Shown here piece by piece: positions 7,366-61,146 of a stretch of DNA of 64,000 nucleotides (within the stretch, counting starts at the first letter, position 1; each line of letters opens with the position of its first letter). Made by a program: the position numbers and the translations under genes. A model generated the notes under the pieces. It was not told the origin of the DNA. It saw only the letters and a list, made by a program, of their open reading frames with translations, and searched no databases. This stretch comes from Alphaproteobacteria bacterium (GTDB lineage: Bacteria > Pseudomonadota > Alphaproteobacteria > Bin95), in assembly GCA_963665325.3 (NCBI GenBank), contig CAXXWS020000001.1, forward strand, positions 1-64,000, given 5' to 3'.

Positions 7366-7463
7366 TCCCCCCGCGCCCGGTTCTTCGCTTCGATCGCCCG
7401 GCGGATGCGCCCGGAACGGCCCGGGCGGTCCTCGGACCGAGGCAAGGGAGAAGGGGGAACGGG

Positions 7464-8029: not shown

Positions 8030-8322
8030 TGAACGACACCGCGCGCCACACCATCCCGCGCCGTCTCGACGACCCGGAGCGCTGGCTGTTCTGGACCGTC
8101 GACGAGGCGGCGGCGCTGATGGGCCCGGCGCTCCTCGGGCTTGCCGCCAACCAGTTCGTGCCGGGGCTGGTGGCCGGCGTCGGCGGCTGGCTGCTGCTCA
8201 GGCGCGTGAAGCGCGGCGGCGGGGCCAACATCGCGCGCTACGCGCTCTACTGGTTCCTGCCGGACTTCGTGCTGCGTCTTGAACGCACGCCGCCGAGCCA
8301 TCTGCGGCGCTTCGCCGGCTGA
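8029..8322 (+). CDS. traL: F-type T4SS TraL
   Basis: IPRRLDDPER.LFWTVDE and LYWFLP motifs. Confidence 0.92.
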   Translation: MNDTARHTIPRRLDDPERWLFWTVDEAAALMGPALLGLAANQFVPGLVAGVGGWLLLRRVKRGGGANIARYALYWFLPDFVLRLERTPPSHLRRFAG

Positions 8323-8344
8323 GGCGCGGAGCGGGGACGGGGCC

Positions 8345-11048: not shown

Positions 11049-11049
11049 C

Positions 11050-44128: not shown

Positions 44129-44278
44129 GGCTCTGGCTCTCCGAACGGTTGTCTCTTGGCGCCGGTCGGCGGCAAGACCGGTTCGAACCAATTTCTCCCG
44201 GCCGGCGACCGCCCAGTCCAATGAAGCATGGCGGTTTTTCCGGAATGTTTCAATAATTTTGACGACCATTCGATTCTA

Positions 44279-44294
44279 ATTGGTCAAGAATGGT
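44279..44294. promoter_or_regulatory. AWTGGT-N4-AWTGGT operator candidate (amt promoter)
   Basis: ATTGGT-CAAG-AATGGT, plus an inverted ACCATT at 44265. Confidence 0.7.
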
Positions 44295-44313
44295 TCAATA
44301 GAACATTAAGCAG

Positions 44314-45294
44314 TCAACGCCTGTGAAGCACTTCAAGGCGATGGTGCGACGGTGTTTCGCCAAACCGCTTCCGGTAGGCGGTGGCGAAATGGGCGGCGCC
44401 GGAAAAGCCTGTGGCAATTGCAATTTCGAGTATGGGCAGGTCGGTCTGGCGTAATAGTTCGCGGGATTTCTCCAGCCGCAGGTCGCGATAGAACGCCCCG
44501 GCGCTGCGGCCCAGCCCGGCGCGGAATTGCCGATTCAGATGACGCGCGCTCACGCCGGCAATTTGGCCAAGGTCGGAAAGCGGCAGCGGGTCGGCGATAT
44601 GGTTTTCCATTGCCTCTATAGCGGCCAGTACGGCGTGTCGGTTCGTGCCGTAACGCTCCGCGAGGCCGGCCCGCTGCGGACCGCCGGCGGGACGCACATC
44701 GGTATGCATGAACCAGTCGCTGACCCTCCGCGCGAAGTCCGCACCGTGATGCTCGGCGATAAGGGCGTGCATCATGTCCAGCGGCGCCGTCCCGCCGGCG
44801 CAGGTGATGCGGTCGCGGTCCACGACATAAAGGGTACGCTCCAGGAGGAGGCCGGGGTGCCGCTCGGCCAGGGCGGCGGCGTGCTCCCAGTGAAGCGTCA
44901 TCCGCCGGTTTTCCATGATGCCGGCATTGGCGAGTACCGCCGGCCCGCCGGAGACGCCGCCCAGCATGCGGCCATGCCGGGCCTGATGCCGCAGCCATTG
45001 AAACACCCGGTCGTCCTGAAAGCCGACCGGGTCGCCGCCGGCGACGACGAATGCGAGGTCGTATGCACCGGTCGCTTCCCCGAGCCCGGCGACCGCGACC
45101 GAAGCCGCGGACGAACTGTTCAGCAGCTCCGCCGTCTTCGGCCCGGCGGCGAAATGGAAGACTTCGTATAGCCGTCTGCCGGCCAGCAGATTGGCGGCGC
45201 GCAACGGTTCGCTCACGGCGGCGAACGACATCAGCGCAAAACCCTCGACAAGGACGAACGCAACCCGGCGGACGGGAAGAGTCGGTTCAAGCAT
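44314..45294 (-). CDS. GlxA/SouR-type AraC regulator
   Basis: EPLRAAN, TLHWEH, TCAGGTAPLDMM; divergent from soxBDAG. Confidence 0.9.
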   Translation of the reverse strand: MLEPTLPVRRVAFVLVEGFALMSFAAVSEPLRAANLLAGRRLYEVFHFAAGPKTAELLNSSSAASVAVAGLGEATGAYDLAFVVAGGDPVGFQDDRVFQWLRHQARHGRMLGGVSGGPAVLANAGIMENRRMTLHWEHAAALAERHPGLLLERTLYVVDRDRITCAGGTAPLDMMHALIAEHHGADFARRVSDWFMHTDVRPAGGPQRAGLAERYGTNRHAVLAAIEAMENHIADPLPLSDLGQIAGVSARHLNRQFRAGLGRSAGAFYRDLRLEKSRELLRQTDLPILEIAIATGFSGAAHFATAYRKRFGETPSHHRLEVLHRR

Positions 45295-45380
45295 GTCTTG
45301 ATTATTAAAGAATACGTCCACAAACGGGAAGCGTAGAATTGGAGATCGGCGCATCAATCGGGCGTTGGACCGAGGACGCC

Positions 45381-46631
45381 ATGCGCTATTCCGTATTGCA
45401 AATCCTCAGGCAGGGCCTGACAGGCAATCGCGGCTGGAAGCCGGTCTGGCGCGAGCCGGAACCGAAGCGGCACTACGACACCATCGTTGTCGGCGGCGGC
45501 GGGCACGGCCTCGCCACAGCCTACTATCTGGCCTCGGTGCACGGCCTGACCGATGTCGCGGTGCTTGAAAAGGGCTGGCTCGGCTCCGGCAATGTCGGCC
45601 GCAACACGACGATCGTCCGCTCCAACTATCTGCTGCCCGGCAACGAGCCCTTCTACGAACTGTCGATGAAGCTGTGGGAAGGCCTGGAGCAGGACGTCAA
45701 CTACAACGCCATGGTCTCGCAGCGCGGGATCATCAACCTGTACCACAGCGACGGTCAGCGCGATGCCGCCGCCCGGCGCGGCAATGCCATGATCCTCGCC
45801 GGAGCCGATGCAGTCCTGCTCGACCGCGAGGCGTTGCAAAGGAAATGCCCCTACCTGGACTTCGACAACGAACGCTTCCCGATCAAGGGTGGGCTGTGGC
45901 AGCCGCGCGGCGGCACGGTGCGCCACGATGCGGTCGCCTGGGGTTATGCCCGCGGCGCCGACCGGCGCGGCGTGGATTTGATCCAGAACTGCGAAGTGAC
46001 CGGCTTCGACATTCGTAACGGCGTGTGCCACGGCGTCGAGACGCCGCGCGGCACGATCGGGGCCGACAGGGTGGCGGTCTGCGTTGCCGGTTCCTCCGGC
46101 CGGGTCATGGGCTATGCCGGTCTGCGCCTGCCGATCGAAAGCCATGTCCTGCAGGCCTTCGTCACCGAAGGGCTGAAACCCGCCATTCCCGGTGTCATCA
46201 CTTACGGGGCCGGGCACTTCTATGTCAGCCAGTCCGACAAGGGCGGCCTGGTCTTCGGCGGCGATATCGACGGCTACAACTCCTACGCCCAGCGCGGCAA
46301 CCTGCCGATGGTCGAGGATGTCTGCGAGGGCGGCATGGCGCTGATGCCGATGATCGGCCGGGCGCGGGTGCTGCGCATGTGGGGCGGCCTGGTCGACATG
46401 TCGATGGACGGCTCGCCCTTCATCGACAAGACGCCGGTCGAGGGGCTCTATTTCAACGGCGGCTGGAACTATGGCGGCTTCAAGGCGACTCCGGCGAGCG
46501 GCTACTGCTACGCCCACCTGATTGCGACCGGCGCGCCGCACCCGGTCGCCGCCGAGATGCGGCTGGACCGTTTCGAGCGCGGCGCCCCGATCGACGAAAA
46601 GGGCGTCGGCGCCCAGCCGAACCTGCATTAG
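45381..46631 (+). CDS. soxB: Heterotetrameric sarcosine oxidase/N-methylglutamate dehydrogenase beta subunit
   Basis: GGGGHGLATAYYL, GRNTTIVRSNY, RHDAVAWGYAR. Confidence 0.92.
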   Translation: MRYSVLQILRQGLTGNRGWKPVWREPEPKRHYDTIVVGGGGHGLATAYYLASVHGLTDVAVLEKGWLGSGNVGRNTTIVRSNYLLPGNEPFYELSMKLWEGLEQDVNYNAMVSQRGIINLYHSDGQRDAAARRGNAMILAGADAVLLDREALQRKCPYLDFDNERFPIKGGLWQPRGGTVRHDAVAWGYARGADRRGVDLIQNCEVTGFDIRNGVCHGVETPRGTIGADRVAVCVAGSSGRVMGYAGLRLPIESHVLQAFVTEGLKPAIPGVITYGAGHFYVSQSDKGGLVFGGDIDGYNSYAQRGNLPMVEDVCEGGMALMPMIGRARVLRMWGGLVDMSMDGSPFIDKTPVEGLYFNGGWNYGGFKATPASGYCYAHLIATGAPHPVAAEMRLDRFERGAPIDEKGVGAQPNLH

Positions 46632-46641
46632 GGCGCGCGGG

Positions 46642-46929
46642 ATGATTATCGACCATCCGCTCCTCGGCCCGCGCGACGCGCAGGAGTTCGTCATTCTTGG
46701 CGATGCGAGCCTGATCGACCGGCCCGACTGGCAGGCCGAGGACGCCGCGCAACTCTTCCACGACTATCTGCACCTGCGGGACAACCCGGCCGGCGAGCAT
46801 CGGGAGCTGTGGTTCCACGAGCAGGGCGACCGCTCCTGGCTGGTCGTCACCCGCAGCACGCTGACCCACGAGGTCCTCAAGGTCGAACTGGCGCGCGATG
46901 TCGCCGTTGCCCGGGGGCGAGACCGGTGA
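46642..46929 (+). CDS. soxD: Sarcosine oxidase/Mgd delta subunit
   Basis: HPLLGPRDAQEF, LRDNPAG, WLVVTR. Confidence 0.9.
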   Translation: MIIDHPLLGPRDAQEFVILGDASLIDRPDWQAEDAAQLFHDYLHLRDNPAGEHRELWFHEQGDRSWLVVTRSTLTHEVLKVELARDVAVARGRDR

Positions 46930-49871
46930 GCGGGCCGTTCCGCCTCGATGGCGGCCGGGTCGACCGGAGCGCGAGCCTCGATTTCCGGTTCGATGGCCGG
47001 AGCCTTTCGGGCCATCCCGGCGATACGCTGGCCTCGGCGCTACTCGCCAACGGGGTTCGGCTGGTCGGCCGGAGCTTCAAGTATCACCGGCCTCGCGGTG
47101 TCTTCACCGCCGGTTCGGAAGAGCCCAGTGCGTTGGTCGAGCTGCGCGGCGGCGCCTGGCGCGAGCCGAATACGAGGGCGACCGTCGCGGAGCTGTTCGA
47201 CGGGCTGGAGGCGTTCAGCCAGAACTATCGCGGTTCGCTGCGCCGCGACCTGCTGGCGGTCAACGATCTGCTCGCCCCCTTCCTGTCGGCCGGCTTCTAT
47301 TACAAGACCTTCATGTGGCCGAAATCCTTCTGGGAGCGGGTCTATGAGCCGGCCATCCGGGCCTCGGCCGGTCTCGGCCGCTTGTCCGGCGAGGCCGATC
47401 CGGACAGCTACGACAAGGGTTTCCTGCATTGCGACCTGCTGATCGTCGGCGCAGGTCCCGCCGGGCTTGCCGCCGCGCTGGCGGCCGGGCGCAGCGGCGC
47501 GCGGGTCATACTGGCCGACGAGGACTTCGTCATGGGCGGGCGGCTCAACGCCGAGACCCATGAGGTGAACGGTCGGTCCGGCGCGGATTGGGCCACCGAA
47601 GCCGTGCGCGAACTGGCGTCCATGAACCGGGTCCGTCTCCTCCCGCGGACCACGGTCACCGGCGCCTACGACCACGGCGTTTACAGTGCGCTAGAGCGCC
47701 GGACCGACCATCTGGCCACCGCCAACGGCAAGCCGCGTCAGATCCTGTGGCGGATCTACAGCAAGCGGGCGATCCTGGCCGCCGGCGCCACGGAACGGCC
47801 CATTGCATTCGGCGGCAACGACCGGCCCGGCGTGATGCTGGCCGGGGCGGTGCGCGCTTACGCCAACCGGTTCGCCGTCGGCGCCGGCCAGCGCGTCGGC
47901 CTGTTCACCAACAATGACGACGGCTGGCGCACGGCCGCCGATCTCGCCCGGAAGGGAGTCGAGGTCACAGCGATTATCGACGCGCGGGACCGCGAATCCG
48001 TCGCCGAGGTGCCGGGCGCCCGGATCGTAATGGGCGGCCGCGTGACGGCGACCCGGGGGCGCCACGGTTTGAAGGGGATCGCCTTGGCGACCGGCGAGTG
48101 GATCGCGCTGGACTGCCTTGCGGTTTCCGGCGGCTGGAACCCCAACGTCCATCTGACCTGCCATCATGGCGGCAAGCCGGTCTGGCGCGACGGGATCGCC
48201 GCCTTCGTGCCCGGCGACCTGCCGCCCGGCATGACCGTTGCCGGCGCGGCGGGCGGCGCTTTCACTACCGCAGCCGCGCTGATCGAGGGGCATCGGGCGG
48301 CGGTCGAGGCGCTTGGCGAACTTGGACTTCCGGCCGACGCAGGCGATGCGCCGGGGGCGAGCGACGAGGCAGCCGACGTTGCGCCCTTCTGGCATGTCGC
48401 GGAGAGCCGGGGCCGGGCGTGGCTTGACCTGCAGAACGATGTGACGGTGAAGGACGTCGTGCAGGCGCATGGCGAGGGCTTCCGCTCGGTCGAGCACCTG
48501 AAGCGCTACACCACGCTCGGCATGGCGACCGACCAGGGCAAGACCGCGAATGTCGGCGCGCTCGCCATCATGGCCGAGCAGACCGGCCGCACCATCGCCG
48601 AGACCGGCACCACGATGTTCCGCCCGCCCTATACGCCCGTGCCGATCGCCGCCTTCGCCGGGCGTTCGCGCGGCATGGAGTTCCGCCCGACCCGCCTGAC
48701 GCCGAGCCACGACTGGGCGGCGAAGCGGAGCGCCGTCTTCGTCGAGGCCGGCGCGTGGTTGCGCGCCCAGTGGTTCCCCCGGCCCGGCGAGACCTACTGG
48801 CGGCAGTCGGTTGACCGGGAGGTCCTGCAGACCCGGGGCTCGGTCGGCATCTGCGATGTCACGACGCTCGGCAAGATCGATATCCAGGGGCGCGATGCGC
48901 AAGAATTCCTCAACCGCATCTATGCCAACGGCTTCGCCACGCTGGCGGTCGGCAAGGTGCGCTACGGTCTGATGCTGCGGGAGGACGGCATCGCCTACGA
49001 TGACGGCACGACCGCACGGCTCGGCGAAAACCATTTCGTCATGACGACGACGACGGTGAACGCCGTGCTGGTGTTCCGCAACATGGAGTTCGCCCGCCAA
49101 TGCCTGTGGCCGGGGCTGGACGTCCATCTGATCTCGGTCACCGAACAATGGGCGCAGTTCGCCGTGGCCGGCCCCAATTCGCGCGCGCTGCTTGGGAAGA
49201 TCGTCGATCCGGAGCACGACATCTCCAACGAGGCCTTCCCCTTCATGGCCTGCGGCGAGGTCGGCGTGTGCGGCGGCGCCCCGGCCCGGCTGTTCCGCAT
49301 TTCCTTCTCCGGCGAGCTGGCCTACGAGCTTGCGGTGCCGGCGCGTTACGGCGAAGCCCTGATGGAAGCGCTGATGGCAGCGGGCGAGGAGTTCGACGCG
49401 GTCGCCTACGGCACCGAGGCGCTCGGCGTCATGCGGATCGAAAAGGGACACGCGGCAGCTAACGAGCTGAACGGCCAGACCACGGCGCGCATGCTCGGCA
49501 TGCAGCGCATGGTGTCGAAGAGGAAGGACTGCATCGGCAATATCCTGTCCGAACGCCCCGAAATGAACCGCGAGGACGGACTGGAGCTGGTGGGCTTCAG
49601 GCCGGTAAACCGTTCGGAGGAATTGCCCTCCGGCGCCCACTTCCTCTCAATCGGCGCCGAGGCGGCGATGGCGAATGACGAGGGCTGGATGACATCGGTC
49701 GCCTGGTCGCCGGAACTGGGCCATTCGATCGGCCTCGGGTTCATCCGCAACGGCCACGCCCGGATCGGCGAAACCGTGCGCGCCTGGGACGGGGTACGCG
49801 GCAGGGACGTGGCGGTCGAAATCGTCTCGGCGCATTTCCTCGATCCGGACGGGGAGCGGCTCCGTGGCTGA
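46926..49871 (+). CDS. soxA: Sarcosine oxidase/Mgd alpha subunit
   Basis: GRSFKYHRPRG, GFYYKTFMWP, KRYTTLGMATDQGK, GcvT-like C-terminus. Confidence 0.92.
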   Translation: MSGPFRLDGGRVDRSASLDFRFDGRSLSGHPGDTLASALLANGVRLVGRSFKYHRPRGVFTAGSEEPSALVELRGGAWREPNTRATVAELFDGLEAFSQNYRGSLRRDLLAVNDLLAPFLSAGFYYKTFMWPKSFWERVYEPAIRASAGLGRLSGEADPDSYDKGFLHCDLLIVGAGPAGLAAALAAGRSGARVILADEDFVMGGRLNAETHEVNGRSGADWATEAVRELASMNRVRLLPRTTVTGAYDHGVYSALERRTDHLATANGKPRQILWRIYSKRAILAAGATERPIAFGGNDRPGVMLAGAVRAYANRFAVGAGQRVGLFTNNDDGWRTAADLARKGVEVTAIIDARDRESVAEVPGARIVMGGRVTATRGRHGLKGIALATGEWIALDCLAVSGGWNPNVHLTCHHGGKPVWRDGIAAFVPGDLPPGMTVAGAAGGAFTTAAALIEGHRAAVEALGELGLPADAGDAPGASDEAADVAPFWHVAESRGRAWLDLQNDVTVKDVVQAHGEGFRSVEHLKRYTTLGMATDQGKTANVGALAIMAEQTGRTIAETGTTMFRPPYTPVPIAAFAGRSRGMEFRPTRLTPSHDWAAKRSAVFVEAGAWLRAQWFPRPGETYWRQSVDREVLQTRGSVGICDVTTLGKIDIQGRDAQEFLNRIYANGFATLAVGKVRYGLMLREDGIAYDDGTTARLGENHFVMTTTTVNAVLVFRNMEFARQCLWPGLDVHLISVTEQWAQFAVAGPNSRALLGKIVDPEHDISNEAFPFMACGEVGVCGGAPARLFRISFSGELAYELAVPARYGEALMEALMAAGEEFDAVAYGTEALGVMRIEKGHAAANELNGQTTARMLGMQRMVSKRKDCIGNILSERPEMNREDGLELVGFRPVNRSEELPSGAHFLSIGAEAAMANDEGWMTSVAWSPELGHSIGLGFIRNGHARIGETVRAWDGVRGRDVAVEIVSAHFLDPDGERLRG

Positions 49872-50439
49872 GACCCCTCTCAGGGCCCGACCGGCGCTCG
49901 ACGGCTACAACCGGACGGTCGGCCCGGTAGCGCTCGCCGAGGTTTCCGGCCTGGCGCTGGTGTCGGCGGCGGTGCCGCAGGGCGGGGACGAGGCCTTCGC
50001 CGCGGCGCTGGCCGAAGGCTTGGGCGCCTCCCGCCCGGCGACCGGCGACTCGACTCCCGGCGACCGGCACATGGCACGAATCCTTGGCATGCAACCCGAC
50101 CAGTTGTTCATCCTGTTCGAATCGCCGGACCCGGACCGTCCAGCCGAATCGGTGCTGGCGGCGCTCGGCGGAGCCGCCTACGTCACCGACCAGACCGACA
50201 GCTGGGCCATGCTGCGCATCGCCGGCGCCGGCGTCCGCAGCGCGCTCGAGCGCATCTGCATGCTCGACCTCGCCGACGAAGCTTTCCCCGAAGGCCGGGT
50301 GGCGCGCACCGTTATGGAGCATCTGGCGGTCATTATCCTGCGGGACGGTGCCGACAGCTTCCTGCTGATGAGTCCGCGCTCCTCCGCCCGCTCTTTCCTG
50401 CATGCGGTGGAACTGTCGGTCCTGAACCTGTCCGAATAG
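49864..50439 (+). CDS. soxG: Sarcosine oxidase/Mgd gamma subunit
   Basis: YVTDQTDSW, LERICMLDL, ARTVMEHL, RSSARSF. Confidence 0.88.
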   Translation: MAETPLRARPALDGYNRTVGPVALAEVSGLALVSAAVPQGGDEAFAAALAEGLGASRPATGDSTPGDRHMARILGMQPDQLFILFESPDPDRPAESVLAALGGAAYVTDQTDSWAMLRIAGAGVRSALERICMLDLADEAFPEGRVARTVMEHLAVIILRDGADSFLLMSPRSSARSFLHAVELSVLNLSE

Positions 50440-50540: not shown

Positions 50541-50812
50541 CTAGCCCGCATTTCTCACCAGGGTCACGGCCTGCGTCGCTGTCCAGGCGTTCGCTCCGCA
50601 AGGAGCGGGCCGAAAAGCGTAGCGGTGCCTACGGTTGAGGCCCGCGACGCCGCGGGCGGACGCCTGGGCGCGACCCGAAGGGCGGTGCTGTCGGGCCGAC
50701 AGGGTGCGTCGAGCCGCTTGCCCGATGCCCCGCATCGCGCTGCACGGCTCTCCTACCCTGCCGGCCCGACAGCACCGCGCAGACCATGACCCTGGTGAGA
50801 AATGCGGGCTAG
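50541..50812. mobile_element. MITE-like non-autonomous element, 272 bp
   Basis: Perfect 26-bp terminal inverted repeat CTAGCCCGCATTTCTCACCAGGGTCA (includes CTAG at both ends). Inner 24-bp IR 50682-50705/50755-50778. Confidence 0.82.
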
Positions 50813-53181
50813 GCCCGAACCCGGGACTTCGTCGGATCGTAGAAGGGGAAGGGCACCACCCGGGCAGGGATGCGTTTCTGGTGGCCGTCGAGCTTGCCGA
50901 CTTCGACCGTCGTTCCTTCCGTCGATGCCGTCACGTCCATCCGGCACAGCGCGATATTCTTGCGCAGGATGGGTGAGCGCATGCCGCTCGTGATGACACC
51001 GACCTGGGCACGGCCGATATGCACGCAGTCGCCGTGCGCAGCCGCCTCCTGCCCTTCCAGTTCCAGACCGACCAGCTTGCGCTGCGGCGATTCCTTGCGC
51101 CGGATCAGGGCTTCCCGCCCTATAAAGTCATCCTCCTTCGTCTTTAGTGGCACGGTGAAGCCGATACCGGCCTCGAAGGGGTCGGTCTGATCGTCGAACT
51201 CGTGGTTGGCGAAAACCAGGCCGGCCTCGATCCGCACCATGTCGAGCGCTTCCAGACCGAAGGGCGAGAGCCCATGCGGTTCGCCGGCCGCCCAGATGGC
51301 GTCCCACACGCCCGCGGCGTCACGCGGATGGCACCATACCTCGAACCCAAGCTCGCCGGTATAGCCGGTGCGGGAGACAACGATCGGGATCCCGGCATGA
51401 TCGCCGATCCGTCCGATCGCAAACCGGAACCAGCCGAGCTCCTCGATCGAGGGCTGGGCGGGGGGCGTCCACACGACCTCCTTCAGGATGTCCCGGCTCT
51501 TGGGACCCTGGACGGCCACGTTATGCAGCTGGTCGGTAGAAGAGCGAACCCAGACATTGAGGCCCAGCTTTCCGGCCTGCTCGCGCATCCATTCACCACC
51601 ATAGTCGGAGCCCCCGATCCAGCGGAAATTGTCGTCGCCGAGGCGGAAGGCGGTGCCGTCGTCGATCATGCCGCCGGTCTCGTAGCACATGGCGGAATAG
51701 ACCACTTGGCCGGTCGCCAGCCGGCGCATGTTCCGGGTGAGCACCCATTGCAACAGGCGTTCGGCATCCGGCCCCAGCACCTCGAATTTCCGCAGCGGCG
51801 ACAGGTCCATGATGACCGCCCGCTCGCGACACGCCCAGTATTCGTCCAGCGCGCCCCGGTTGGTGAAACTGTTGGCTAGCCAGTAGCCGTTATATTCGGT
51901 GAAGTTCCGCGTGTGTGTGGAAAACCGGGCATGGAAACCGGTTTCCTTGGTCAGCTTGGGATCGGCGTCGGGAGTCATACGAAAAGCCACCGCTTTGGAA
52001 AACAGGTTCTCGCGCGGGTAGACCCGCACATGGATGTCGGTCGGGTTCCAGCCATTGGCTGCGTCGATATCGTCCGGACAGGCGGACGATACGCAGACCA
52101 AGTCGGTCAAGGCCTGCAACAGCACGTAGTCGCCTGGCCGAGACCAGGGATTGTCGTGGAATCCCTGGTTGGCATCGTCGAACCCGGTGTTGAAGAAAAA
52201 GTTCAGCGCCATCCAGCCGCGCCGCGGCGCAACCCCGAACGGCGCCAGCACCCGGTTGAAGTTGTCGGTGCAGTTGACGTGGCCGGGATATCCCGTGTCG
52301 TCGTAGTACTTTGCCGTGCAGGCATACAGGAAACTGTCGTGGCGACCGCAGGTGTCGCGGATGACTTCGACCATCGGCTGGAGATCCTGGTCGAAGCATT
52401 TCGACAGCAGGCCCGGCGCCGGATAGGCGCTGCCCATCAAGGTGCGGGTGGCCGTCGCGTCCAGGCAGAGTTCGTGCCCTCCGTCCAGACCGGCGGCGGT
52501 GAAGGCTTGGAAGTCGGAACACTGCCGACCCTGCACGTCGATGATCTGGATGAACTCTCCGGCCTTGACCTCGTAGGCCTCGGCCGTACTGGCGGCGATG
52601 CGCAGGTCGAGACCCGGATCGGTCAGGGGCTCCGGTACCGGGTGCTCGGTGTGCGCAACCGGGTTGGTATGGGTCACGAAAATCTCGATGCGGGTCGGCG
52701 GGTCCTGCCGGTCGACGCGCATGGCGGGTCCCGGCGCCGCGACGAAACACACCAGCGGCCGCTCGGCGACGAACATTGCCTCATCGCCCGGGCGCGACTC
52801 GCCGCCAAGAACGTCGATGGACCGCGCCGCGGCGATATCGAGGCCGCGTCGCTGCAGGGAACCGGCGAGCGACCGGGCGGCCTCGTCATTGCTGCCCAGT
52901 ATCGCCTTCAGGCCCTCGGCGGTTCCGTTCGACGCGGCGCCCAGCGCCTCCGTGTCCGCGGAGCCGCTTGGCGCGAATGCAGCGATCTGAGCGGCCTGTC
53001 GCCCTTCCCGGTCGCGAACCGTGACGCTGTCGCCCGGCTCAAGTGAAAATACGGTCGCGCCACCGCCCTCGGCGACATACCGCTCGACCCCGAAGCCCAG
53101 GGTGGGCACACCGGGAAGCAGCACGGCGCCGGCGGTCGAGGGCCGTTGCGCGAGTGCCGGTATGCGTGTCTCGTCGGTCAT
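50809..53181 (-). CDS. tdm: TMAO demethylase (DUF1989 + GcvT-like aminomethyltransferase)
   Basis: QCSDF, HDSF..AC, HVNCTDN, SSACPDDID, then GcvT motifs RTGYTGELGFE and RIEAGL. Adjacent to the tmo transporter. Confidence 0.9.
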   Translation of the reverse strand: MTDETRIPALAQRPSTAGAVLLPGVPTLGFGVERYVAEGGGATVFSLEPGDSVTVRDREGRQAAQIAAFAPSGSADTEALGAASNGTAEGLKAILGSNDEAARSLAGSLQRRGLDIAAARSIDVLGGESRPGDEAMFVAERPLVCFVAAPGPAMRVDRQDPPTRIEIFVTHTNPVAHTEHPVPEPLTDPGLDLRIAASTAEAYEVKAGEFIQIIDVQGRQCSDFQAFTAAGLDGGHELCLDATATRTLMGSAYPAPGLLSKCFDQDLQPMVEVIRDTCGRHDSFLYACTAKYYDDTGYPGHVNCTDNFNRVLAPFGVAPRRGWMALNFFFNTGFDDANQGFHDNPWSRPGDYVLLQALTDLVCVSSACPDDIDAANGWNPTDIHVRVYPRENLFSKAVAFRMTPDADPKLTKETGFHARFSTHTRNFTEYNGYWLANSFTNRGALDEYWACRERAVIMDLSPLRKFEVLGPDAERLLQWVLTRNMRRLATGQVVYSAMCYETGGMIDDGTAFRLGDDNFRWIGGSDYGGEWMREQAGKLGLNVWVRSSTDQLHNVAVQGPKSRDILKEVVWTPPAQPSIEELGWFRFAIGRIGDHAGIPIVVSRTGYTGELGFEVWCHPRDAAGVWDAIWAAGEPHGLSPFGLEALDMVRIEAGLVFANHEFDDQTDPFEAGIGFTVPLKTKEDDFIGREALIRRKESPQRKLVGLELEGQEAAAHGDCVHIGRAQVGVITSGMRSPILRKNIALCRMDVTASTEGTTVEVGKLDGHQKRIPARVVPFPFYDPTKSRVRA

Positions 53182-55172
53182 TCCAGCCCCAACACTTTCT
53201 TGCGTTCCCGGGCCCAGGCGTTGATCAGCTGATCGGCGATCAGGCCCAGGAAGGCGATGCACAGCCCGACGACCAGAGACTGGCCGGCATTGTTATCGGC
53301 CTTGGACCGGAAAATCTCCTGGCCGAGATCCGTGGTGCCGATGAAGGCGGCGATCACCACCATGAACAGCGCGTACATGATCGTCTGGTTGATGCCCAGC
53401 ATGATCGCCGGGAAGGCGAGCGGCATGCGCACCTTCCACAACACTTGGCGCGGCGTGCAGCCCGACGTGATTGCCGCCTCGACAATCTCGTGCGGCACTG
53501 TCCGCAACCCGAAGATCGTCAACCGGGTCGTCGGGATCGTCGCGTAGATCACGATCGCCATGATGGCAGCGAAGTCGTTGACGCTGAACAGCATGATCGC
53601 CGGGATGAGGTAGATGAAGGACGGGAAGGTCTGGAAGGTGTCCAGGATCAGCTCCACAACCCTCGTTCGCCTGGGCCCGGCCGCCGCCCAGATGCCGACG
53701 ATGGACCCGAAGATCACGCAGACGACCACGGCGAAGCTGACCATGTAGGCGGTGATCAACGTCCGCTCCCAATAGCCGGCGAAGGCGAGATAGAGGACAA
53801 ACAGCGCCTGGATGCCGGCGACCTGCCAGCCGCCGTAATACCATCCGAGCGTGACCGCGAAGACCAGCAGCGCCGACCAGGGAAGCATCAGGTACAGGTC
53901 GCGCATCGGGATCAGGACATGGACAAGAAGCGTGTCCTTGATCAGCTCCAGATAGTCGAAGGCGTAGATGATGATGTCGTCGATCAGCGCGTCCCACAGC
54001 GGCGCGGTGGTGATCGACAGCGATTTCGGCCAGAGCTGCAGCGCGGGAATGAACGCCGCCAGAATATAGGAGACGGCGACGACCGCGGCGCCGGCGGTAA
54101 GGAAGGGATGGCGGACGTGGAACGGCCCTTCCCGCATACGCTCCGGTTCCTTGCGCGCCCAGGCCTGGCTCAGCCGGTCGAGGATGATCGCCATGAACAC
54201 GATCACCACGCCGATCTCCAGCGCTTGGCCGATCCACAGCGAACGCAGCCGGTTCAGGAGATCGTGCCCCAGCCCCTTGGCGCCGACGAAGGATGCGAGG
54301 ACGACCATCGCCAGACACAGCATGATGACCTGATTGACGCCGACCATCAGGGTCGGCCGCGCCGCCGGCAGTTCGACCTTCCACAGCATCTGGCGCCTGG
54401 TGCAGCCGGCCATGATGCCGGCCTCCCGCACCTCCGGCGACACCCCCTTCAGCCCCAGAAGGGTCAGCCGCGCCATCACCGGGAAGGCGAAGATGATGGT
54501 GGCGATCGTGCCGGCTTTGTGGCCGATGCCGATGAAGATGGCGACCGGGATCATGTATGAGAAGTGCGGCAGCGCCTGCATGACGTTCAGGATCGGCCAC
54601 AGCAGTGCCTCGAACCAGCGCGTCTTGTAGGCCATGATGCCGAGCACTACCCCGATCGCGCCGGCAATCGGTGCTGCCACCAGGACCACCGACAGGGTAA
54701 CCATCGACAGTTCCCATTTGCCGAAGATCGCCATATAGGCGAAGCAGAACCCGGCGATGATTCCGAGCTGGCGGCCCTGCAGATGCCAGCCGAGGACGAC
54801 CGCCAGCCCGGTCACCGCTATCCAGGGCAGTCCCGGAACCGACTCTGAGAAACCGGCGACCAGAACGGCCTCGACGAAATCCAGCGGGAAATCGATCAGG
54901 TTGGCTATGGCCCGGGTCATGTCCCGGAAGGTGAGGAGGCCGAATATCTCCTCCTTTCGCAGGACTTCAACCGCTGCGTTAATCCACCCGACGAACGGCG
55001 CCGACCACTCCTGCGGGACGATTCTCAGCCAGTCAGGCAGAAACGGGCCGATCAACAGGACGAACACGGCCGGCGCCAGCAGGAAGACCGCGACGCGGAG
55101 ACCGGATTGCCCTGCGCCAACGACCCAGCGGCGGACCGTGAGTTCGCCGCTCAGGACCGCTGCTTCAGCCAC
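53178..55172 (-). CDS. tmoV: ABC permease, fused double ProW-like (TMAO transporter)
   Basis: Two EAA-type loops, MQALPHFSY and FQTFPSFIY. Start uncertain. Confidence 0.82.
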   Translation of the reverse strand: MAEAAVLSGELTVRRWVVGAGQSGLRVAVFLLAPAVFVLLIGPFLPDWLRIVPQEWSAPFVGWINAAVEVLRKEEIFGLLTFRDMTRAIANLIDFPLDFVEAVLVAGFSESVPGLPWIAVTGLAVVLGWHLQGRQLGIIAGFCFAYMAIFGKWELSMVTLSVVLVAAPIAGAIGVVLGIMAYKTRWFEALLWPILNVMQALPHFSYMIPVAIFIGIGHKAGTIATIIFAFPVMARLTLLGLKGVSPEVREAGIMAGCTRRQMLWKVELPAARPTLMVGVNQVIMLCLAMVVLASFVGAKGLGHDLLNRLRSLWIGQALEIGVVIVFMAIILDRLSQAWARKEPERMREGPFHVRHPFLTAGAAVVAVSYILAAFIPALQLWPKSLSITTAPLWDALIDDIIIYAFDYLELIKDTLLVHVLIPMRDLYLMLPWSALLVFAVTLGWYYGGWQVAGIQALFVLYLAFAGYWERTLITAYMVSFAVVVCVIFGSIVGIWAAAGPRRTRVVELILDTFQTFPSFIYLIPAIMLFSVNDFAAIMAIVIYATIPTTRLTIFGLRTVPHEIVEAAITSGCTPRQVLWKVRMPLAFPAIMLGINQTIMYALFMVVIAAFIGTTDLGQEIFRSKADNNAGQSLVVGLCIAFLGLIADQLINAWARERKKVLGLE

Positions 55173-56214
55173 CGGAGTCCGGCTCCCGGGAGAACAGCAC
55201 ATCGAGGATGCGGGTACGGCTCACCACCCCGACGATCCGGTCGCTGTCGTCGGCGACCTGCAGGGGACGCTCGCTGTCGACGATCATCCGCGCGACGTCG
55301 GCCACCTTGTCGGTCTGGCGCACCGTGCGATCCGACACTGGCTGTCCCTCCGCCGGCGCTTGCATGACCGAGGCGATTGTCAGCAGCTTTTCGCGGGCGA
55401 CGTCGCGGGTGAAGTTGGCGACATAGCCGTCGGCGGGCCGTGTCACCAGTTCTTCCGGTGTGCCGATCTGCACGATCCGGCCTTCGTTCATGATCGCGAT
55501 GCGGTCGGCAAGCCGGATCGCTTCGTCGAAATCGTGGGTGATGAACGCAATCGTTTTCTGCAGCATCGTTTGCAGGCGCAGGAACTCGTCCTGCATTTCG
55601 CGCCGGATCAGCGGGTCGAGCGCCGAGAAGGGTTCGTCGAGAAACCAGACATCCGGCTCGACCGCCAGCGACCTCGCGATGCCGACACGCTGCTGCTGGC
55701 CGCCCGACAGCTCGCGCGGATAGTAGCGGTCGCGCCCTTTGAGCCCGACCAGCTCGATGATCTCCAGCGCCCGCTTCTCCCGCGTCGTGCGGTCGACGCC
55801 CTGCACCTCCAGCGGGAAAGCGACATTCTGCAATACCGTCCGGTGGGGCAGCAGGGCGAAATGCTGGAACACCATCCCCATCTTGTGACGGCGGATTTCG
55901 ATCAGCTCCCGGGCGGGAATCTTCAGCAGGTCCTGGCCGTCGAACAGCACTTCGCCGGCGGTCGGTTCGATCAGTCGGGACAGGCAGCGCACCAGCGTCG
56001 ACTTGCCGGAGCCGCTGAGCCCCATGATGACGAGGATTTCGCCGGGAAAGACCTCCAGGCTGGCATGGCGCACGGCGGGAATGTAGCCATCGGCCTCAAT
56101 GGCGCCGTCCGGAGGATCGCCGCCATGCGCGGCAAGAAAACCTTCTGGGTCCCTGCCGTACAGCTTCCAGATGCTTCGGCAGGCGATCTTGGCGTCCAAA
56201 ATCTTCCTCTCCAT
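55165..56214 (-). CDS. tmoW: ABC ATP-binding subunit, ProV-like
   Basis: GLSGSGKS, LSGGQQQR, DEPFSALD. Confidence 0.85.
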   Translation of the reverse strand: MERKILDAKIACRSIWKLYGRDPEGFLAAHGGDPPDGAIEADGYIPAVRHASLEVFPGEILVIMGLSGSGKSTLVRCLSRLIEPTAGEVLFDGQDLLKIPARELIEIRRHKMGMVFQHFALLPHRTVLQNVAFPLEVQGVDRTTREKRALEIIELVGLKGRDRYYPRELSGGQQQRVGIARSLAVEPDVWFLDEPFSALDPLIRREMQDEFLRLQTMLQKTIAFITHDFDEAIRLADRIAIMNEGRIVQIGTPEELVTRPADGYVANFTRDVAREKLLTIASVMQAPAEGQPVSDRTVRQTDKVADVARMIVDSERPLQVADDSDRIVGVVSRTRILDVLFSREPDSGG

Positions 56215-56299
56215 TCGGCCGCCCCGAAGCGGGAGGATCACGGTACGACTTTTTCCCGGATCGGGAAACGCCGTACCGTCCCCGGCCCGGAACGATAAC

Positions 56300-56325
56300 G
56301 CCATTACGAACCATTACCAACCATT
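56300..56325. promoter_or_regulatory. Operator candidate (tmoWV-tdm promoter)
   Basis: GCCATT/ACCATT/ACCATT at 56300, 56310 and 56320, i.e. AATGGY on the minus strand at exact 10-bp period. Confidence 0.7.
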
Positions 56326-56409: not shown

Positions 56410-56425
56410 ATTGGTGCAAATTGGT
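56410..56425. promoter_or_regulatory. Operator candidate (tmoX promoter)
   Basis: ATTGGT-GCAA-ATTGGT. Confidence 0.7.
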
Positions 56426-56455
56426 TCGACGCCAAACGACCGAGGGAGAATCCTG

Positions 56456-57400
56456 ATGCGAAAGATGGCGAAAGCGGCCGGTGCGGCCGTATTGCTGATC
56501 GCAGGCGCCCAGGCCGCCACGGCCGAAACGATCAACATTCCACTCCACAACTGGTCGAGCCAGCTTGTGGGCGCCCGTATCGTGGGCAACATGCTGGAGA
56601 TGGTGGGCGAGAAGGTCGCCTATGTGTCGGCGGACAGCCAGGTGGTCTACACCTCGATGTGCGAAGGCGACATCCACCTCGTGCACGAGGTTTGGCAGGG
56701 CGCATTCGGCGTCAGCTACGAGAAGCAGCTGAATGCGGGCTGCGTGGTCACGGCGGCGACCCATGAGGCCAAGACCCGCGAGGAATGGTGGTATCCCGAC
56801 TATGTCGAGGAGGCCTGCCCCGGCCTGCCCGACTGGGAGGCGCTGAACAAGTGCGCCGAGATGTTCGCGACAGCCGCGACCAAGCCGCAGGGCCGCTTCC
56901 TTGCCGGTCCCGTGGACTGGCTGAAGCACGACCAGGAGCGCGTCGACGGGCTTGGAATGAACTTCAAGGTGGTGAACGCGGGCTCGGCCGCCGCGCTCTG
57001 GGCGGAGTTGAAATCGGCCAGCAAGCGCAAGGCGCCGATCGTGCTGTTCAACTGGACGCCGAACTTCATCGAGGCCCTGTACGAGGGCAAGTTCGTGGAG
57101 TTCCCGACCTATGATGAGGCTTGCCGCAAAGATCCTGCATGGGGCCTGAACCCTGACAAGGCTTATGACTGCGGCAACCCGAAGGACGGCTATCTGAAGC
57201 TTGGCGTGTGGAAGGGCTTCGCCGAGAAATGGCCGAAGGCCTACAAGGTGCTGCAGAAGATGAGCTTCTCGAACCTCGACATCGCCGTCATGGCCAAGCT
57301 GGTCGACGTCGACAAGATGGAGGCGGATGCCGCAGCGGCCAAATGGATGGAAGACAACAAGGCCAAATGGGAGCCTTGGGTGGCTGCGGCCACGATGTAA
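56456..57400 (+). CDS. tmoX: TMAO-binding periplasmic protein (ProX-like)
   Basis: Signal peptide, HNWSSQ, HEVWQG, TREEWWYP, FNWTPN, YDCGNP. Confidence 0.85.
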   Translation: MRKMAKAAGAAVLLIAGAQAATAETINIPLHNWSSQLVGARIVGNMLEMVGEKVAYVSADSQVVYTSMCEGDIHLVHEVWQGAFGVSYEKQLNAGCVVTAATHEAKTREEWWYPDYVEEACPGLPDWEALNKCAEMFATAATKPQGRFLAGPVDWLKHDQERVDGLGMNFKVVNAGSAAALWAELKSASKRKAPIVLFNWTPNFIEALYEGKFVEFPTYDEACRKDPAWGLNPDKAYDCGNPKDGYLKLGVWKGFAEKWPKAYKVLQKMSFSNLDIAVMAKLVDVDKMEADAAAAKWMEDNKAKWEPWVAAATM

Positions 57401-57430
57401 ATTCGGGCCGGAAGCTCGATACCGCGATCG

Positions 57431-57460
57431 GGGCCCGCCAGCGATGGCGGGCCCTTTTCT
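57431..57460 (+). terminator. Intrinsic terminator after tmoX
   Basis: GGGCCCGCCA-GCGA-TGGCGGGCCC-TTTTCT. Confidence 0.85.
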
Positions 57461-57490
57461 TGCGCGTTTCAACCGACAGGGCACTGGATC

Positions 57491-58942
57491 ATGACGGTAC
57501 TGCTGGAAACTCGGGCCGATCTCACGCTCGAAACCGCCCGGCGGGTAGCCTGGGATGGCGAAGGTGTCGAACTCGGCGCCACGGCCCTCGCGGCGATGCA
57601 GCAGGGGCGGGATCGGCTGGAACGCATTCTCGACCATGACCCCGAGGTCACGATCTATGGCGTGACGACCGGTTACGGCCAGTTCGCCCGCAAGCGGCTC
57701 ACGCCGGAGGAGCGCGAACAGTGGGCCGGCATGTCACCGGCCCGCATCGCCGCGTCGTGGGGCGATCCGCTGCCCGAACGCGTCGTGCGCGCCATCGTCC
57801 TGGCGCGCCTGGCCAACTTCGTGGAAGGACATGCTGCGATATCGCCGGAAGTCGCCCTGGGTGTCGCTGCCATGCTGGACGGGGACAGCTTGCCGGCCGT
57901 CCCGGCGCAGGGTCAGGGTGGGGCGGGCGAGATCCTCTCGCTGAGCCACCTGTTTACCGGTCTGGCGGAAAGGATGAAACCCGCGGCTAAGGACGTGTTG
58001 TGCCTGATCAATGGATCGCCGGCGGCCACGGGCCTTGTCGTCGACGCCGCGCTTGCCGCGGACAGGCGCTTCGATATGGCGGCGCGGGTCTTTGCGCTCT
58101 CCTTCGAGGCCTTCAACGCGCCGCTGGGCCATCTCGATCCCGCGCTGGACGGTTACTGGAACAACCCCCATGACAGCTGGGCGCTTCGGCGTCTTCGCGA
58201 ACTGGTGGGCGACGGTCACGGCGGAGAAAGGCGTCCCTATCAGGCGCCCGTAAGCTATCGCATCGTGCCGCGGATGCTGGGCCAGGCGCGGCGGGCAGCG
58301 GCCATGGCCGCGGAGGTCGCGGCCGAGTCGCTCCAGGCGGTGACGGACAACCCGGTATGGATCGATGCCGTCGACGGGGACCACCCCTTCGGTCGCTTCA
58401 TATCGACGGGCGGCTATCACAACCCCCATGCGGCGCTCGCCATGGACGCCCTGACCGCCGCCTGCGCCAATCTCTGCGTTCTTGCCGGACGTCAGGGCGC
58501 CAAGCTTCTGGACGGCGCCGTTTCGCTGCTTCCCGATCAGCTCACTGCCGGCGAACCCGGCGGCGAGGGCCGCCGGGCCCATATGGGAGGCCTGCCGATG
58601 GCCCAGACCGGATATGAAGAGGAAGCCCGTCTCTACGCCCAGCCGACATTGCTCCCCGGCGGGGAATCCGGCGGTTTCGGCCAGAACGACGTCGCCAGCC
58701 CCGTGTTCCTGGCGTGGTCCAAGCAGGACCGCGCCGGGCGGTGTCTCGACATGGCGCTCGCCAGTCTCGTGCCGATCGCCCTGCGTGCGCTCGACGTCAC
58801 CGACCGTCCCGTTCCGCCGCGACTGGCCGGACTCGAGGCCGCAGTCCGGGAGATCGAGCCCGACTTTACGCGGCCCATGGCGTTGGGGCCCGTGGTGGCA
58901 TCGATTGCCGGGGCCCTGCGCCACGACATCTATCCGCAGTGA
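57491..58942 (+). CDS. Aromatic amino acid lyase (HAL/PAL) family protein lacking the MIO-forming Ala-Ser-Gly
   Basis: IYGVTTGYG, LING, YQAPVSYR, TDNP, GGYH. The MIO loop reads GQGGAGEI. Confidence 0.85.
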   Translation: MTVLLETRADLTLETARRVAWDGEGVELGATALAAMQQGRDRLERILDHDPEVTIYGVTTGYGQFARKRLTPEEREQWAGMSPARIAASWGDPLPERVVRAIVLARLANFVEGHAAISPEVALGVAAMLDGDSLPAVPAQGQGGAGEILSLSHLFTGLAERMKPAAKDVLCLINGSPAATGLVVDAALAADRRFDMAARVFALSFEAFNAPLGHLDPALDGYWNNPHDSWALRRLRELVGDGHGGERRPYQAPVSYRIVPRMLGQARRAAAMAAEVAAESLQAVTDNPVWIDAVDGDHPFGRFISTGGYHNPHAALAMDALTAACANLCVLAGRQGAKLLDGAVSLLPDQLTAGEPGGEGRRAHMGGLPMAQTGYEEEARLYAQPTLLPGGESGGFGQNDVASPVFLAWSKQDRAGRCLDMALASLVPIALRALDVTDRPVPPRLAGLEAAVREIEPDFTRPMALGPVVASIAGALRHDIYPQ

Positions 58943-58966: not shown

Positions 58967-59701
58967 CTACAGAAAATCCCGTTCGTGTACGATTGCCGTC
59001 AGATAGCCTGCGGCCAGAAGCCGGCGGGTGTCGGTCATCTCCAGCGGCTGCTCCCGGCGCCAGATGTCGAGCACATCGCGCGCACGGTTCCCGGCAGCGG
59101 CCTGGATCTTGGCGTCGTACAAAGCCATCCGGGCATCGTCCCCGGCGGCATCGGCCCGGCCGGACAGCACCCGCGCGATTTCGACGACTTCCGTGTTGTT
59201 CGGCCCGAACGCCTGCTCGCGTTCGGCGAGCGCGGCTGTGAGCAGGGCGTCGGCCGTTTCGTCGTCGTCCAGGAAAAGCCGGGCAATCGCGAGGTTGAAG
59301 CGGGTCAGGGCCGCCGCACCGGTCAGGAACTCGCGGTGCCGCGCACGCCGGACGTCGCCATAGGCCGCGACATGGCGCTGTTCCATGCGCTGGTGGAAAA
59401 GCGAACTGCGAGCCGCGGCGCTGACCGCCATGCTTTGCGTCCACTCCATCGCGGCGTCCCACGAGGCTAGCGCTGACGACAGGGCGGGGACCGCGCCGTT
59501 GTGGTCCTGATCGATCAGGAGGGCGAGCGCGCTGTTGTTCTCGCTGGCGGCCCGGCGCGGATCCCCCTCCGGAAAGCCCCGCGCCAAGGTGCCCGCCTGG
59601 CGCCACAGGTGGACCGCCTCCTCACGCCGCGCCGAGCGGTAAGCGTCGAGCGCCGCCGCTGAAAGGGCATCCCACTCCCATTCCGCCGTCACCTCGGCCA
59701 T
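58967..59701 (-). CDS. TPR-like helical protein downstream of tmm
   Basis: DPRRAASENN, ARSSLFHQRME, Ala-rich helices; 20 bp after the tmm stop. Confidence 0.72.
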   Translation of the reverse strand: MAEVTAEWEWDALSAAALDAYRSARREEAVHLWRQAGTLARGFPEGDPRRAASENNSALALLIDQDHNGAVPALSSALASWDAAMEWTQSMAVSAAARSSLFHQRMEQRHVAAYGDVRRARHREFLTGAAALTRFNLAIARLFLDDDETADALLTAALAEREQAFGPNNTEVVEIARVLSGRADAAGDDARMALYDAKIQAAAGNRARDVLDIWRREQPLEMTDTRRLLAAGYLTAIVHERDFL

Positions 59702-59721
59702 GGCCGGGGGTCCGAACAGCG

Positions 59722-61065
59722 TCAATCCTCCCGGAGATAGCTCTCCATCGAATCGTCCATGGCATCGACCCAGGCGGTGTGGTGGGTCGGGGCCATCGTG
59801 CCGGTCATCACCGACTTGTACGCGTTGTCCCGGAATGTCATGATGTTCTGCTTCTTGTGCTTCTTCCACTGGAAGAAGGCGTCGTTCGCGCCGTCCACAT
59901 CGAAACTCGGATAGTCGGTCTCGGCGATCAATTCCCTGACATAGTCGCCCTGGTAGCGGATCGCGCCATAGTCGTCTTCGAGGGCGTCTTCCGCGGCCAC
60001 CCGATCGACGACGTCGGCTGCCCGGGCGTCACGGTCCGGCACCTGAATGCGGTCCATGACGATGTCCCGGACATACCAAGCCTGAGCGTCGAACATGTTG
60101 AAGGTGTACCACTGGTCCTGCATGCCGAGATAGAACAGCTTCGGATTGTCCACCCACGCAACACCCTTGTAGAGGTCGGCCGTCGCCAGCCGGTTGGCGC
60201 TCCGAAGGCGCAGCTCCGGCGCCATGAACGGGAAGTGGAGCAGATAGCCCGTGCACAGGATGATGGCATCGACGTTGGCCGTCGAGCCGTCCTTGAATGT
60301 GCAGGTATTGCCCTCGACCTTCTGCAGCAGAGGCACCTCTTTCCAGTTGTCCGGCCAGTCGAAGCCCATGGCCGCGGTGCGGTGACTGACGGTGACGGAC
60401 CTGCAGCCGTACTTCCAGCACTGGGAGCCGATGTCCTCGGCCGAATAGCTGGTGCCGATGATCAGGATGTCCTTGTCCTTGAACTCAACGGCGTCGCGAA
60501 AATCGTGGGCGTGCAGCACGCGGCCGTTGAACCGGTCCAGACCGTCGAAATGCGGCACGTTCGGGGTCGAGAAATGACCGGTCGCGACGACGACATGATC
60601 GAAGCTCTCGGTGGTCTCCTCGTCGGTCGTGAGATTCTGCGCCGTGACGGCGAAGAGGCCCGTCGCGTCGTCATAGTCGACCCGCCGGACAGCCGTAAGG
60701 AAGCGAATTGCATCGCGCACGCCCGCCCTCTTTACCCGGCCCTCGATGTAATCAAACAGCACTTCACGCGGCGGATAGGAGGCGATCTGCTTTCCGAAAT
60801 GCTCCTCGAACGTATAGTCCGCAAACTCCAGTCCCTCTTTGGGCCCGTTCGACCACAAGTACCGGTACATGGAGCAGTGGACCGGTTCGCCGTATTCATC
60901 CAGCCCGGTCCGCCAAGTGTAGTTCCACAAGCCGCCCCAGTCCGCCTGCTTCTCGTAGCAGACGATCTCCGGAACGTCCGCGCCGCCGGCCTTTGCCGAC
61001 TGGAACGCCCTCAGCTGGGCGAGGCCGGACGGCCCTGCACCGATCACAGCAACTCGTTTACTCAT
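59722..61065 (-). CDS. tmm: Trimethylamine monooxygenase (bacterial FMO)
   Basis: [22 protein letters not shown] motif [31 protein letters not shown]. Confidence 0.93.
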
Positions 61066-61146
61066 GGTTTCGCTCACTGTTCTGGCCGGCGGTCGGGACT
61101 GGCCCGAATCGCCCGCACGGTTTCATGACATGTCTCGGTAGCCGAA

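Follow-up and report, generated by a model that had tools for sequence, protein, structure and literature searches.

The window analysed here is a 64,000-nucleotide stretch of genomic DNA (GenBank assembly GCA_963665325.3, contig CAXXWS020000001.1, positions 1 to 64,000) from a member of the Alphaproteobacteria of the GTDB lineage Bin95. Between its tmoX and tmm genes it carries a gene for a lyase of the PF00221 family that lacks the Ala-Ser-Gly triad of those histidine ammonia-lyases (HAL, or HutH) which depend on the cofactor 4-methylideneimidazole-5-one (MIO). We give an even chance to the reading that this lyase is a cytoplasmic hercynine trimethylammonia-lyase, forming urocanate and trimethylamine (TMA) and belonging to a lineage separate from ergothionase. 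The MIO triad is lost, the catalytic base and the carboxylate ligands are kept, these traits are conserved family-wide, and the genes have recurrent genomic associations. The trimethylammonia-lyase reading is drawn from two linkages to urocanase-family genes, an enrichment of the trimethylamine monooxygenase gene (tmm) among carrier genomes, the chemistry of a MIO-less active site and three characterised precedents; hercynine is proposed for the clade of the window because its partner is a canonical urocanase (HutU). Confidence is held at this level because the imidazole ligands of HAL are not conserved and because a sister clade goes without tmm and, for the most part, hutU.

The product matches Pfam PF00221 in two stretches with 222.2 bits (cut-off 27.3) and falls below the HutH models TIGR01225 (149.7 bits; cut-off 539.15) and NF006871 (154.1 bits; cut-off 524), on which the HutH of the same genome, encoded on contig 4, scores 665 and 697 bits, respectively. 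In a MAFFT alignment with this HutH the loop GQ-GGAGEI stands opposite GSVGASGDL, leaving a gap of one residue and placing Ala where HutH has Ser143; HAL residues are numbered as in Pseudomonas putida HAL through an alignment of the genome's HutH with 1gkm. A HMMER alignment to tyrosine aminomutase (TAM) 2qve likewise sets 'AG' opposite the MIO residue. Where the MIO-dependent HutH has Ala-Ser-Gly, the lyase has G-A-G and the gap. Since its loop is without Ser and one residue shorter, the lyase is predicted to be incapable of forming MIO. The earlier note on this DNA had claimed both the altered loop and this consequence, and the alignment bears it out. The same note had described IYGVTTG as a retained catalytic Tyr loop; its Tyr aligns with HAL Tyr53 and is present in 101/101 relatives. 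Relative to HAL the lyase also has a 23-residue deletion straight after the loop and carries Val for Tyr280, Asn for Glu414, Ile for His83 and Tyr for Phe329, so that three residues of canonical HutH (His83, Tyr280 and Glu414) are absent.

Modelled with AlphaFold2 from an alignment of 52 sequences (predicted local distance difference test 92.9), the lyase superimposes on structures of HAL, tyrosine ammonia-lyase (TAL), TAM and ergothionase with Foldseek template-modelling (TM) scores of 0.83-0.87, and on HAL, TAM and ergothionase about equally well (0.86-0.87); fold comparison does not tell HAL from ergothionase affinity, the score being 0.87 for both. By its Pfam match and this model the lyase is a PF00221 superfamily member with the predicted fold of HAL and phenylalanine ammonia-lyase (PAL). 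No signal peptide was seen in the lyase by eye, and a protein atlas look-up of it returned generic names only.

The lyase has many relatives. Of 8000 candidates scored in a word-indexed search, 2066 proteins reached E ≤ 0.001, many of them full-length and 63-98% identical, and an exhaustive search of 50%-identity representatives gave 186 at E 1e-30 or better. Residues were counted in 101 relatives taken from the fetched loci. The Ser143 column holds Ala in 91, Pro in 8 and Ser in 2, the MIO Ser being lost in 99/101. The equivalents of Tyr53, Asn195, Gln277 and Arg283 are kept in every one of the 101 and that of Asn313 in 100. Val occupies the Tyr280 column in 100/101, Tyr the Phe329 column in 94, and the Glu414 column is Asn in 88 and Asp in 11; the family lacks the 23 residues that follow the loop in HAL. 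The His83 column is Ile in the clade of the window lyase and hypervariable elsewhere, tandem paralogue arrays included; the alignment of the His and Glu imidazole ligands was made at ca. 22% identity, so low that its register may be displaced by one or two residues. In the 52-sequence alignment, which reaches down to 26% identity, Y56, N174, Q251, R257 and N287 of the window lyase are each at least 90% conserved. Judged from these sequences, the altered loop is a family trait and does not reflect an error or a broken gene.

According to two preprints (bioRxiv 10.1101/2025.08.13.670108; 10.64898/2026.04.22.720169), the characterised MIO-less PF00221 enzymes (ergothionase, Swoo_3913 and SO_3299) are all trimethylammonia-lyases, TMA being a leaving group good enough to dispense with MIO. 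As described there, these enzymes retain the Tyr base, the Gln/Arg/Asn carboxylate ligands, and a His and a Glu for the imidazole nitrogens. The statement of the earlier note that ergothionase and related trimethylammonia-lyases are MIO-independent members of this family agrees with these accounts. Of the features so described, the lyase has the missing triad, the Tyr base and the carboxylate ligands; it does not have the His and Glu for imidazole N-tau and N-pi. For Swoo_3913 of Shewanella woodyi the conversion of hercynine to urocanate and TMA was measured, and the preprint reports no histidine deamination (bioRxiv 10.1101/2025.08.13.670108). This enzyme resembles the window lyase in being a PF00221 protein without the triad that keeps the Tyr base and the Gln/Arg/Asn ligands. 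However, Swoo_3913 is described there as periplasmic and genetically coupled to a urocanate reductase that serves anaerobic respiration, and it retains His117 and Glu467 for the imidazole nitrogens, whereas the window lyase is linked to hut or tmm genes in its family and has Ile and Asn at these places together with the 23-residue deletion. Shewanella oneidensis possesses MIO-less paralogues specialised on different derivatives, SO_3299 (an N(pi)-methyl histidine betaine lyase) and SO_3057 (an ergothionase), as described in bioRxiv 10.64898/2026.04.22.720169; unlike the window lyase, both are described there as periplasmic and coupled to flavocytochrome c reductases. The window lyase was compared with Swoo_3913, SO_3299 and SO_3057 through these descriptions, and by sequence with the ergothionase 6s7j.

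The latter, Td_ETL of Treponema denticola, is MIO-less and has the same fold as the lyase (Foldseek TM 0.87/0.85, rmsd 3.0), but the two are 18% identical and phmmer relates them at E 2e-4. P. putida HAL (1gkm/1b8f) has the same fold at TM 0.87, and the equivalents of the Tyr53, Asn195, Gln277, Arg283 and Asn313 of this enzyme and of the genome's own HutH are kept in the lyase. A profile of the MIO-less family gave E values of 8e-53 to 6e-47 with HALs, 8e-53 to 1e-44 with HAL, TAL and TAM taken together, and 9e-34 with 6s7j, whereas the genome's own HutH matches 6s7j at E 2e-55. The family profile did not bring out common descent with the characterised trimethylammonia-lyases, ergothionase being the only comparator. 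We take the MIO-less family to be a separate deep branch of the aromatic-amino-acid-lyase superfamily, which upholds the separate, possibly new subfamily of the earlier note. Because its profile lies nearer to HAL, TAL and TAM than to 6s7j, and because the genome's HutH is itself so close to 6s7j, MIO was probably lost independently of the loss in ergothionase. Ergothionase proper has a Lys (Lys384 in Td_ETL) that binds the thiolate and a thiourocanate hydratase as partner; as a label for the lyase it was rejected on the weak relation to 6s7j and on the canonical HutU as partner hydratase of the nearest relatives. No NCBIfam ergothionase model came up in the scans; there is no model NF058528, and NF058533 is unrelated.

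Gene context was followed in 80 loci from genome contigs with 10-kb flanks and in 14 loci from a class sample of 401 genomes. The neighbour counts are approximate, since open reading frames (ORFs) were called by weighting G+C at third codon positions rather than with a gene finder, and the lyase itself was missed in L040, L079, L085 and L096. In 7/80 loci (L038-L042, L044 and L104) the lyase gene directly follows a canonical hutU, with hutC, hutI or hutF nearby; in L038 the two genes overlap, the sequence GTGA containing both the stop of hutU and the start of the lyase. The hutU products of these loci score 942.8 bits on TIGR01228 and stay under the cut-off of both thiourocanate models (701 bits on NF058530, cut-off 930). 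Searches of five hut-linked genomes gave MIO-less-type PF00221 matches only, with a canonical HutH-type match in 0/5; for comparison, 7/106 hutU-positive genomes of the class sample are without a hutH match.

A linkage to another urocanase-family gene occurs in genome G103, which carries diverged MIO-less paralogues (40-48% identity) in two tandem arrays, one of five genes and one of six; the paralogues differ in nearly every copy at the His83-equivalent column. The five-gene array (45-48% identity) is arranged in the order GlxA-type AraC regulator, hydratase, desulfurase-like gene, array, ATP-binding cassette (ABC) transporter genes. The urocanase-family gene passes the S-methyl thiourocanate hydratase model NF058531 (890.8 bits; cut-off 880), and the desulfurase-like gene has the S-methyl thiohydantoin desulfurase model NF058532 as best match, with 409 bits and below the cut-off of 450. 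Such a set is what one would expect if a thio-histidine betaine were broken down and the MIO-less family provided the lyase, and the arrays suggest paralogues specialised on different histidine-betaine derivatives.

In a FastTree phylogeny, for which support values are local, the window lyase falls in a 99%-supported clade of six, four of them tmm-linked and two hut-linked. This is nested in a 99%-supported clade of 14 with six hut-linked, four tmm-linked and four other members, so that hut-linked and tmm-linked lyases are mutual nearest relatives. The MIO-less family is carried by 15/401 genomes of the class sample. Among carriers hutU is present in 13/15 against 93/386 of the other genomes (Fisher p 1e-6), canonical-type hutH in 13/15 against 98/386 (p 2e-6) and tmm in 6/15 against 11/386 (p 9e-6), or 4/12 against 11/295 when counted by genus (p 0.0015); these p values overstate the association, related genomes not being independent. 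In 50 further genomes with orthologues tmm was found in 17 and hutU in 34, and in the 13 genomes of the nearest clade in 10 and 12, respectively. The window's own genome has a single urocanase-family gene, a canonical hutU (951 bits), and a single hutH, both on contig 4.

The embedding in hut operons, the co-occurrence with hutU and the S-methyl-thiourocanate hydratase linkage of the paralogues favour betaines of histidine over those of aromatic amino acids as the substrate class, even though the lyase lacks the classical imidazole-binding residues. The substrate would most likely be N-alpha-trimethylhistidine (hercynine), from which trimethylamine would be removed. Tyr56 would accept the beta-proton, the carboxylate would be bound by Asn174, Gln251, Arg257 and Asn287, and the quaternary ammonium group would depart without an electrophilic cofactor. 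As canonical hutU and hutH lie on contig 4, the urocanate formed would be usable by the genome's HutU pathway, and the TMA could be oxidised and demethylated by the adjacent Tmm and trimethylamine N-oxide (TMAO) demethylase (Tdm). What we infer here is the substrate, the two products and whatever metabolic coupling to Tmm there may be.

Several observations weigh against a hercynine trimethylammonia-lyase that supplies TMA to its neighbours. The imidazole-binding His and Glu of HAL are Ile and Asn in the lyase, and neither in sequence nor in fold does the MIO-less family come nearer to ergothionase than to HAL, TAL or TAM. In a 13-member sister clade (ca. 80% identity) whose residues are those of the window clade in all 13 tabulated active-site columns, tmm occurs in 0/13 and hutU in 2/13 genomes; the genomes of L047-L049 and L052 have neither gene. 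No link to hut, tmm-cluster, Sox or Tdm-like genes is present in 66/80 loci, and a tmm/tmoX linkage is limited to three of them (L036, L037 and L046), all close kin. In the window a terminator-like hairpin parts the lyase from tmoX, and tmm is on the opposite strand. No study of the MIO-less family, and no assayed member of it, was found in the literature searched, which did not cover the paper behind the NCBIfam S-methyl-thiourocanate models; that paper may describe a lyase of this kind.

The earlier note had linked the lyase to TMA genes and had it feeding Tmm/Tdm directly. The link stands to the extent that carrier genomes are enriched for tmm; the physical linkage to tmm, tmoX and tdm is confined to the three close kin. 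Conserved synteny with tmm, for which the 14 and the 80 loci were inspected, was seen in these kin only, and tmm or tmoX within ca. 9 kb was found in 0/14 class-sample loci, among them one small contig with a Tdm-like fragment. Owing to the rarity of the linkage, the hairpin and the opposite strand, direct feeding would be lineage-specific at best. The position in the tmm island, though suggestive, is a lineage-specific arrangement; it is not conserved.

The replacement of the imidazole ligands is also what leads us to weigh a MIO-independent lyase acting on something else, be it ergothioneine, S-methyl-ergothioneine, N-methylated hercynine or a non-histidine betaine, with TMA or another good leaving group; the hut linkage of the relatives would then reflect a product that merely resembles urocanate. 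The change of His and Glu to Ile and Asn is in keeping with this, as is the hypervariability among paralogues of the His83-equivalent column, which corresponds to the site changed by His89Phe in the TAL variant 2o78, a TAL/PAL selectivity switch. The paralogue arrays with S-methyl-thiourocanate-type genes, the loci with SoxA/SoxG-like, betaine aldehyde dehydrogenase (BADH)-like or aminotransferase and SnoaL genes, and the lack of hutU in 11 of the 13 sister-clade genomes point the same way. Yet the hutU of the nearest relatives is the canonical urocanase of 942.8 bits, the one urocanase-family gene in the window's genome is also canonical, and hutU is there in 12/13 genomes of the nearest clade; another substrate therefore seems to us rather unlikely. 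The lyase might also be a true MIO-independent histidine ammonia-lyase that, working cofactor-free, has replaced HutH in the hut operons of bacteria that lost the canonical enzyme. It is the hutH slot after hutU that the lyase holds in the seven loci, hutC, hutI and hutF are present alongside, and canonical HutH is absent from the five genomes searched. We know of no MIO-free histidine ammonia-lyase, however, and Ser143 mutants of HAL are inactive. Moreover, 13/15 class-sample carriers, the window's genome included, also keep canonical hutH, the tmm enrichment is left without an explanation, and His83, Tyr280 and Glu414 are all lost. With the MIO-less Swoo_3913 reported to be without histidine deamination (bioRxiv 10.1101/2025.08.13.670108), we judge a cofactor-free histidase very improbable.

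The protein might, finally, not be a methylated-amine lyase at all, having some other reaction or a binding or regulatory role, in which case its place in the tmm island would be incidental. The highly variable neighbourhood, in which no neighbour cluster recurs in more than 20/81 loci, the terminator-like hairpin upstream and the many carrier genomes with neither tmm nor hutU are consistent with this. Such a role sits badly with a catalytic Tyr and four carboxylate ligands strictly conserved down to 26% identity, with two independent linkages to urocanase-family genes and with significant co-occurrence with hutU and tmm, and we regard it as distinctly unlikely.

If the lyase is a hercynine trimethylammonia-lyase, its family would be a second, independently evolved lineage of cofactor-free TMA-releasing lyases, one with a wide distribution among uncultured Alphaproteobacteria (186 clusters at 50% identity reaching E 1e-30). 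Hercynine breakdown would connect with the histidine-utilisation pathway as well as with aerobic oxidation of TMA, marine and host-associated communities would have a new biological source of TMA, and hut operons without hutH would be explained. With its imidazole ligands lost and its selectivity position hypervariable in the tandem arrays, the family would amount to a natural experiment in substrate switching. This significance would come from genomic association.

Table 1. Features of the window, and the paralogue arrays of genome G103
Feature	Position	Strand	Remarks
MIO-less PF00221 lyase gene, candidate histidine-betaine trimethylammonia-lyase	57491-58942	+	ATG start, 483 aa, no internal stop
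IYGVTTG loop of the lyase	57653-57673 (residues 55-61)	+	Tyr56 is the HAL Tyr53 equivalent, predicted beta-proton acceptor
GQGGAGEI loop replacing GSVGASGDL	57911-57934 (residues 141-148)	+	no Ser, one residue shorter
Terminator-like hairpin	57430-57455	+	11 pairs (9 G-C), T-rich tail; between tmoX stop and lyase start
tmoX, TMAO-type substrate-binding protein (OpuAC family)	56411-57400	+	PF04069; PDB 4xz6 E 2e-116
ABC ATPase, tmoXWV-type transporter	55165-56304	-	label read from translation
ABC permease, tmoXWV-type transporter	53178-55202	-	label read from translation
tdm, trimethylamine N-oxide demethylase	50809-53262	-	NF053776 1245.7 bits, cut-off 1100
Conserved ORF, weak tetratricopeptide repeat match	58967-59869	-	TPR_12 below cut-off; between lyase and tmm
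tmm, trimethylamine monooxygenase	59722-61077	-	NF058570 823.6 bits, cut-off 675
MIO-less paralogue arrays of G103	L033 (G103:C1) 4555-11933; L034 (G103:C2) 565-10985

The tmoX, tmm and tdm neighbours named in the earlier note are confirmed by the matches in Table 1, PDB 4xz6 being what we take to be the TMAO-binding TmoX; the strength of that match led us to discard the idea that the tmoX-type binding protein imports hercynine. Inspection by eye of the 90-bp spacer before the lyase, where no motif search was run, showed no evident HutC-like operator. As called, the conserved ORF next to the lyase overlaps the coding end of tmm by 148 nt, and its start is probably later for this reason. Copies of it, 83-88% identical, are confined to the three tmm-linked relatives, which share the order tmoX, lyase, ORF of this type, tmm. 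Their lyases are 88-91% identical to that of the window and their neighbour genes 83-97%; permease and ATPase copies of 90-97% identity adjoin the lyase in L036 and L046. Upstream of tdm, positions 42776-50439 hold genes labelled from their translations as a transporter of the Amt type, an AraC regulator of the GlxA type and the beta, alpha and gamma members of a heterotetrameric sarcosine-oxidase-like set, which together with the tdm region would be a methylated-amine island.

Contigs from RNA libraries include pieces of the lyase (57416-57609, which takes in the hairpin, 57858-58011 and 58206-58428) as well as short pieces of tmoX, the conserved ORF and tmm, all at depth 2-9. The libraries, labelled 'metagenome' and 'sponge metagenome', are at most two data sets, X15 and X16 having identical tables and X17 and X18 likewise. 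They give at most a hint of expression, carry-over of DNA being possible and transcript ends not being shown.

Further neighbours recur in related loci: SoxA/SoxG-like genes upstream in three, a BADH-like aldehyde dehydrogenase upstream in six, and an aminotransferase with SnoaL near the lyase in five. All-against-all clustering of the neighbour ORFs gave no single neighbour conserved in more than 20/81 loci. A Tdm-like fragment adjoins the lyase gene on the small contig L024, and in L081 and L101 there is a Tdm-like gene at a distance of 5-6 kb. In L039 (11487-15655) and L040 (323-7196) a tripartite ATP-independent periplasmic (TRAP) transporter (DctP/Q/M) and a TauD-family dioxygenase adjoin the hutU-lyase pair, and could together serve to take up or modify the substrate. 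Within the 14-gene clade, L043, L045, L103 and L055 have the lyase flanked by a membrane protein of the fatty-acid desaturase family and a helix-turn-helix regulator, with a ferredoxin-reductase-type flavoprotein on the opposite side, a context that suggests an oxygenase system. Genomes G438-G440, G444 and G448 (L118-L123) contain divergent urocanase-family paralogues scoring ca. 590 and ca. 780 bits on hutU and lying under the cut-off of the thiourocanate hydratase model. The ca. 590-bit copies of the genomes with aldehyde-dehydrogenase-linked lyases were rejected as thiourocanate hydratases at 563-624 bits against the cut-off of 930. G448 has the divergent ca. 590-bit copy only, and G210, which is its counterpart in the class sample with identical contig and coordinates, is without a canonical hutH match. 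The window begins at base 1 of contig 2, and its G+C content is 70-76% at ca. 2-30 kb, 62-64% at 32-46 kb and 62-70% from 46 kb to the end, the part in which the putative methylated-amine island is located.

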